From the NCBI RefSeq assembly GCF_013167455.1, contig NZ_CP038328.1: a DNA stretch of 64,000 nt. One strand, 5' to 3'. The DNA comes from Escherichia coli O157:H7 (GTDB lineage Bacteria; Pseudomonadota; Gammaproteobacteria; Enterobacterales; Enterobacteriaceae). Positions 44,724-44,771 of this stretch are shown here, piece by piece. A model generated the notes under the pieces. That model did no database searches. It had not been told where the DNA came from and saw only the letters and a list, made by a program, of their open reading frames with translations. A program made the position numbers and the translations under genes. Positions within the stretch are counted from its first letter, which is position 1; each line of letters begins with the position of its first letter.

Positions 44724-44771
44724 CAGCCCTGACATTGAGCAGCTTTTTTGCGCTGCGTAGTGTCAGGGCTG
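44724..44771 (-). terminator. nested hairpin downstream of malZ (probable malZ terminator)
   Basis: 11-bp inverted repeat CAGCCCTGACA / TGTCAGGGCTG enclosing a smaller GCAGC-N8-GCTGC hairpin, 34 nt 3' of the malZ stop. Confidence 0.45.

Follow-up and report, generated by a model that had tools for sequence, protein, structure and literature searches.

Genomic Context and Structure of the Hairpin

We analyzed a nested hairpin located downstream of malZ in a 64,000-nt stretch of Escherichia coli O157:H7 DNA (contig NZ_CP038328.1), hereafter referred to as the window. As shown in table 1, malZ, the hairpin, and the gene ECs_0454 follow one another on the minus strand, and acpH converges on them from the opposite side. 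The O157:H7 chromosomes of Sakai, PV15-279, and EDL933-like strains, among others, match this region of the window at 100% identity. A stretch of 33 nt separates the malZ stop codon from the hairpin, which occupies the interval 107-154 nt before the ECs_0454 ATG, in agreement with the position 3' of malZ and ~110-150 bp before the next gene that was given in an earlier note on this DNA; the 11-bp inverted repeat around a GCAGC/GCTGC stem described in that note also matched the sequence.

Table 1. Coordinates of the malZ-acpH region in the window, with the corresponding hairpin region of Sakai, in which the hairpin itself spans 486,348-486,395.
Feature	Position	Strand	Remarks
acpH (ACP phosphodiesterase)	42570..43151	+	Convergent with ECs_0454
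Accessory insert, ~1.65 kb	43155..44804		Carries the hairpin and ECs_0454; present in O157, absent from K-12
ECs_0454, 481-aa orphan hypothetical protein	43172..44617	-	ATG at 44617
U-rich tail AAUUUGUUAAAUAUUUG	44707..44723	-	Directly 3' of the stem in the malZ sense
Nested hairpin	44724..44771	-	48 nt; sequence reading and folding
Hairpin outer arms	44724-44734 and 44761-44771		11 bp, perfect
Hairpin internal loop (4x4)	44735-44738 and 44757-44760
Hairpin inner stem (GCAGC/GCTGC)	44739-44743 and 44752-44756		5 bp
Hairpin apical loop	44744-44751		8 nt; A-run in the malZ sense
Spacer from malZ stop to hairpin	44772..44804	-	33 nt; malZ-side end of the insert; absent from K-12
malZ stop codon	44807-44805	-
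malZ (maltodextrin glucosidase)	44805..46622	-	Upstream gene, same orientation as the hairpin
Hairpin and tail region in Sakai	NC_002695.2 486,348-486,406	+

On the plus strand, the hairpin reads CAGCCCTGACA-TTGA-GCAGC-TTTTTTGC-GCTGC-GTAG-TGTCAGGGCTG, in which CAGCCCTGACA and TGTCAGGGCTG form the outer arms and seven of the 11 outer pairs are G-C. The arm-gap-arm pattern occurred once in the 64-kb window and in none of 100 dinucleotide shuffles. Perfect inverted repeats with arms of 11 bp or more and no more than 40 nt between them were found at six loci, compared with a mean of 0.6 in first-order Markov simulations of the window. On either strand of the window, no other hairpin preceding a T-rich stretch was as stable as this one. 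Thus, the nested hairpin is real and beyond chance. The longest perfect inverted repeat of the window was observed elsewhere, at 20459-20506, with 19-bp arms (TATCCCTTAATTGTGCAT-N10-ATGCACAATTAAGGGATA); it lies ~45 nt upstream of an open reading frame (20549-21460, plus strand) that we take, judging from its N-terminus, to be panE-like, and might function as an operator or belong to a leader.

RNA folding of the hairpin alone gave -29.9 kcal/mol. In a 66-nt context, the minus-strand RNA reached -31.4 kcal/mol (z = -5.6; z ranged from -4.8 to -5.6 across folds in the malZ sense), and the plus-strand RNA reached -36.8 kcal/mol (z = -7.5); no shuffled sequence was equally stable for either strand. 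The plus-strand fold owes its greater stability to two G-U pairs and an A-U pair that form across the internal loop, and therefore stability by itself does not single out the malZ strand.

The two strands also differ in what follows the stem. A U-rich tail is present only on the malZ-sense strand, whereas the plus strand goes on with GUGACUAACGACG. The tail AAUUUGUUAAAUAUUUG has a 2-nt A spacer followed by U at five of the first eight bases, which satisfies a rule of at least five T in eight, 0-2 nt from the stem. Its TransTermHP-style score was -2.48, compared with -4 to -5 for the clear terminators of the window (e.g., 48207-48180); the default tail cut-off of TransTermHP is about -2.5. The U-tract AAUUUGUU is interrupted and preceded by two A's, and is thus mediocre to weak. 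A simple terminator scan did not list this hairpin because of the 4x4 internal loop in its stem.

An Accessory Insert Carries the Hairpin

Comparison with strains that carry an empty junction established where the hairpin belongs. In MG1655 and a K-12-like strain, the stop codons of acpH and malZ lie 4 bp apart (…GCG TTA TAA AACG TTA GTTCATCC…), and this 4-bp K-12 junction contained neither the hairpin nor a terminator-like motif. An identical 4-bp architecture between the convergent stops was observed in a divergent E. coli with an empty site, and a terminator-like motif was likewise missing from the empty-site genomes other than K-12. Because the structure is absent from K-12, where the junction is only 4 bp long, the hairpin belongs to the ~1.65-kb insert. 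The earlier note had considered that the structure might also be present at the same place in K-12 and would then be simply the malZ terminator; since it is missing there, this simpler explanation fails. The suggestion that the hairpin marks the insertion boundary did not hold, as the boundary is the malZ stop itself (~44804/44805), 33 nt away. At the other end, the insert would start at 43146 if the last codon and stop of acpH, which are divergent (CTCTGA vs TTATAA), were counted. The GC content of the insert was 29-43%, compared with ~54% in the flanks. Neither terminal inverted repeats nor direct repeats or target duplications were found at the insert ends, and the acpH-side end contained no hairpin matching that at the malZ side.

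Of 5426 complete E. coli genomes, 1126 (21%) carried the insert, in one copy each, always at the same site and never on a plasmid. A search for the hairpin itself in 5426 E. coli genomes returned exactly one place in each of 1127 matching genomes, always at malZ. In strain HS-02 (NZ_CP172818.1, ~421,623-422,735), ~1.1 kb of poly-T/poly-A low-complexity sequence was observed between acpH and malZ, and a degraded hairpin copy lies at the edge of this sequence. The partial match almost certainly reflects an error of base calling or assembly in the AT-rich insert. Some E. coli lineages carried ~126 extra bp in the queA-acpH spacer. Lineages with this variant include both filled and empty junctions; it thus represents a flank haplotype to which the insert is not strictly linked.

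To place these states in an evolutionary order, we considered the equivalent junction in related genera. In Salmonella and Citrobacter, it is occupied by a 200-aa AhpC/TSA peroxiredoxin gene (tsaA) followed by a canonical bidirectional terminator; the Salmonella peroxiredoxin/terminator junction was observed at locus L069, 3083-3965, and in C. freundii the convergent neighbor is an amidohydrolase instead of malZ. Judged from these sequences, the malZ/acpH junction is a variable spot across the Enterobacteriaceae. The empty 4-bp junction was also found in a genome labelled E. fergusonii, whose malZ shares 92.5% identity with the O157 gene. This makes insertion likelier than loss, a direction based on this single outgroup genome. 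The most parsimonious scenario would be that an Escherichia ancestor lost tsaA together with the terminator, leaving malZ and acpH abutting, and that a subset of E. coli subsequently gained the 1.65 kb. We also considered that the hairpin might be an ancestral malZ terminator lost in K-12, and rejected this candidate: the Salmonella/Citrobacter terminator is unrelated to it in sequence, and the E. fergusonii-labelled junction is empty.

ECs_0454 Is an Orphan Gene

The only open reading frame of the insert, ECs_0454, begins at an ATG preceded by a GGAG Shine-Dalgarno sequence at a distance of 7 nt. No family was assigned to its product by Pfam, NCBIfam, PHROG, or PADLOC, and the best sub-threshold Pfam matches were QRICH1 and DUF3700 (E ~0.01). 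A sequence search of the PDB returned no SopD chain, with a single weak match to an IcmE repeat (E = 0.26), and an AlphaFold2 model had a pLDDT of 37 and was unusable for fold comparison. The label "SopD-like" or "effector-like" that had been attached to this gene is therefore without sequence support from profile and PDB searches, and no match to the SopD/SopD2/EspY family was found. Among 1.84 billion representative proteins, only fragments of ECs_0454 itself were recovered, with no relative outside E. coli. Searches with tblastn returned nothing from phages and, from plasmids, only two 4.9-Mb records that are evidently misfiled chromosomes (NZ_CP141089.1 and NZ_CP134663.1). A literature search for ECs0454/Z0502/Z0503/Z0504 found nothing relevant.

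Within E. coli, the gene contains a 12-nt (4-aa) tandem repeat of ~5 units at 43704-43787, which accounts for protein alleles of 461-493 aa that differ in 4-aa steps across strains. The median pairwise dN/dS was ~0.6, and the reading frame was intact in most alleles and truncated or frameshifted in some strains, such as O145 RM8995. On the evidence of these searches and alleles, ECs_0454 is a fast-evolving orphan restricted to E. coli. No consensus-like sigma-70 promoter was found in the 106 nt separating the hairpin from its ATG; thus, ECs_0454 may be silent, may be transcribed from a promoter that departs from the consensus, or may rely on transcription that leaks past the hairpin.

The Hairpin as a Putative Intrinsic Terminator

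The position of the hairpin 33 nt after the malZ stop codon, its sense orientation, the GC-rich base of the stem together with the U-tract on one strand only, and the empty site without a terminator led us to interpret it as an intrinsic (Rho-independent) terminator-type RNA stem-loop on the malZ-sense strand, which would have arrived with the ~1.65-kb insert. We put our confidence in this reading at about half because of the weak U-tract and the more stable fold of the opposite strand; a Term-seq data set for EHEC Sakai exists (PRJNA601151, cited in PMC9002310).

According to this reading, an ancestral malZ/acpH junction without a terminator would have received the insert precisely at the stop codon of malZ. 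On leaving malZ, RNA polymerase would transcribe first the 33-nt spacer and next the 48-nt hairpin, and the GC-rich base of the stem (CAGCCC/GGGCUG) would form beside the AAUUUGUU tract. A fraction of the transcripts would end at the hairpin or be shielded there from 3' exonucleases, so that malZ would gain a defined 3' end, and read-through into ECs_0454 and onward into antisense acpH would be lowered, probably not abolished. The hairpin would thus most likely be a terminator or insulator of moderate efficiency and of a known kind. Insulation of the inserted gene from malZ read-through, as the earlier note had proposed, is geometrically plausible for a site in the same orientation between malZ and that gene, but the U-tract is mediocre; we infer termination, as we do the action as RNA and the use of the malZ-sense strand, from sequence and folding.

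The comparison with known terminators showed both similarities and differences. Like Rho-independent terminators of E. coli, the hairpin is a GC-rich stem-loop followed by a U-rich stretch, on the sense strand and tens of nucleotides after a stop codon; unlike them, it has an unusually long, compound stem (11 bp, a 4x4 internal loop, and 5 bp) and a poor U-tract, and it is part of an accessory insert. The terminator between acpH-tsaA and malZ in Salmonella and Citrobacter (AAAAAAGGCTCGC-ATTC-GCGAGCCTTTTAT) occupies the equivalent genomic position, after malZ or the convergent gene that stands in its place, and presumably does the same job. However, it has no sequence similarity to the O157 hairpin, and it is short, canonical, and bidirectional, with A- and U-tracts on both sides, whereas the O157 hairpin is followed by a U-rich stretch in a single direction. 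Judged from Salmonella and Citrobacter, a terminator at the malZ junction is the norm when intergenic space exists.

A further parallel is offered by the left-end stem-loop of IS200, a hairpin within a mobile element that acts as a terminator against transcription entering from outside. The O157 hairpin likewise lies just inside an end of acquired DNA and would shield the acquired gene, a resemblance in function only. Unlike IS200, the O157 insert is present in a single copy and has neither a transposase, nor IS ends, nor a second hairpin.

Variation among Insert Alleles

To evaluate how the hairpin varies, we collected spacer alleles from complete genomes and from metagenomes, which were scanned with the 20 nt that follow the malZ stop as an anchor. 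The malZ-ECs_0454 spacer was obtained from 40 loci representing 14 distinct alleles. The stems were unchanged in 13 of the 14 alleles, and the loops were variable. One of 32 paired hairpin positions was polymorphic, compared with six of 17 unpaired positions (Fisher p = 0.005), a loop count that is inflated by the slippage-prone A-run, and with 16 of 123 positions in the flanks (p = 0.09, one-sided, not significant). The tail UUUGUU was unchanged in all 14 alleles, with A or G at the second tail base, and the apical A-run ranged from 5 to 7 in length. In the most divergent allele (L034), the tenth outer pair was broken, and the hairpin still folded at -27 kcal/mol; two substitutions in this allele make a new U-A pair adjoining the inner stem. 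No compensatory change or covariation was observed in any pair among the 14 alleles, and covariation support was unobtainable because neither the protein nor the insert has relatives outside E. coli. Since the alleles are only 3-4% diverged, stem conservation constitutes weak evidence, and the pattern of variation across these alleles is compatible with, not proof of, selection on the hairpin structure.

These data bear on the possibility that the hairpin is a functionless passenger, that is, a chance palindrome in acquired AT-rich DNA that has been kept because the insert alleles are young and little diverged, rather than through selection on the structure. No pair shows compensatory change, the difference between paired positions and flanks is not significant, the U-tract is weak, and the weak constraint on ECs_0454 together with its truncated and frameshifted alleles suggests that the whole insert may drift. 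However, perfect 11-bp arms with a nested stem far exceed chance, a GC-rich palindrome is conspicuous in DNA of 29-43% GC, the loops vary more than the stems, and the position and orientation are exactly those of a terminator. We thus regard a passenger as unlikely.

Alternative RNA and DNA Elements

The hairpin could also act as an RNA element other than a terminator. It might serve as a processing or stabilizing stem-loop, with an RNase III or RNase E site or a barrier to 3' exonucleases in a malZ-ECs_0454 cotranscript; it might belong to a leader of ECs_0454, with transcription starting upstream of the hairpin; or it might be a hairpin of plus-strand transcripts antisense to ECs_0454. The lack of a consensus-like promoter before the ATG suggests that ECs_0454 may need transcription through the hairpin, and the weak U-tract speaks against efficient termination. 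In addition, the two stems and the internal loop between them stack into a coaxial helix of ~20 bp, which is nearly continuous in the plus-strand version (14 + 5 bp with one mismatch, the fold of -36.8 kcal/mol). On the other hand, an Rfam search at permissive E-values returned only noise (best E = 0.1, a plant miRNA model) and thus no known RNA family, there is no evidence of a plus-strand transcript or promoter at the hairpin, and no alternative (anti-terminator) pairing was evident in folds of the hairpin region. We consider these RNA alternatives, taken together, distinctly unlikely.

As for DNA elements, no match to the arms was found in viral contigs. In 100,044 genomes representing species, the only matches to the arms were 11 palindromes from distant phyla that are unrelated to the hairpin, and no Escherichia representative was among them; this number is somewhat above the chance expectation of ~0.5 and of the same order. 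Several classes of element were rejected. A repeat family or mobile element does not fit a single copy per genome in 5426 E. coli genomes without terminal inverted repeats or target-site duplications, and a REP/BIME-type repetitive palindrome does not fit one copy per genome and one copy in the window. For an integron attC site, we sought complementary R'' (RYYYAAC) and R' (GTTRRRY) core sites flanking the palindrome: the plus strand carries ATTTAAC ahead of the hairpin, but the sequence on the 3' side (GTGACTAACGACG) lacks a complementary GTTRRRY, and no integrase is found nearby. An IS200/IS605-type element or a MITE was likewise rejected, given the single copy, the missing second-end hairpin, terminal inverted repeat, and target-site duplication, and a sole open reading frame without a Pfam or NCBIfam match.

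It is very unlikely that the hairpin acts at the DNA level, whether as a relic of insertion (the subterminal hairpin of a defunct mobile element, or a site of recombination) or as a palindrome bound by a protein. The hairpin does lie just 33 nt inside the malZ-side insert end, and the junction is variable: tsaA occupies it in Salmonella and Citrobacter, most Escherichia have nothing there, and 21% of E. coli have the insert. However, the hairpin has no other copy in the E. coli genomes and no partner at the far end of the insert, the insert encodes neither a transposase nor an integrase, the ECs_0454 protein is absent from phages and true plasmids, the attC core pair is not in complementary positions, and half-sites 26 bp apart would be unusual for a dimeric regulator.

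Consequences for malZ and acpH Transcription

Returning to the terminator reading, we considered what the insert would change relative to K-12. An RNA-seq analysis with ExcludonFinder listed malZ-acpH in MG1655 as a convergent excludon, that is, a pair with overlapping transcripts (PMC12288877), which fits the terminator-less K-12 junction. The same two genes flank the insert in O157. The K-12 transcripts overlap because nothing separates the two stops; in insert-bearing strains, by contrast, 1.65 kb that include the hairpin separate malZ from acpH. The stops of ECs_0454 and acpH now converge at a 20-bp gap (43152-43171) without a hairpin, and ECs_0454-acpH probably inherits the overlapping-transcript situation in these strains. 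Thus, the insert moves the convergent partner of acpH from malZ to ECs_0454 and would rewire the malZ-acpH overlap.

A more far-reaching proposal is that the hairpin acts as a leaky attenuator, which would tie ECs_0454 expression to maltodextrin-induced (MalT-driven) transcription of malZ, with the insertion replacing the malZ-acpH excludon by an ECs_0454-acpH excludon. We consider this proposal quite improbable; if it were true, about one-fifth of E. coli strains would be wired differently between maltodextrin catabolism and ACP turnover.

The hairpin is of modest importance; it is ordinary in kind and leaves existing concepts unchallenged. Two earlier labels are corrected: no resemblance to SopD is detectable in the neighboring gene, and the insertion boundary lies elsewhere than at the hairpin. 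For the annotation of O157, the analysis provides a candidate 3' end of malZ and flags ECs_0454 as an orphan found only in E. coli. If the terminator reading holds, it would mean that a small accessory insert can carry its own transcript boundary into a junction that is terminator-less in K-12.
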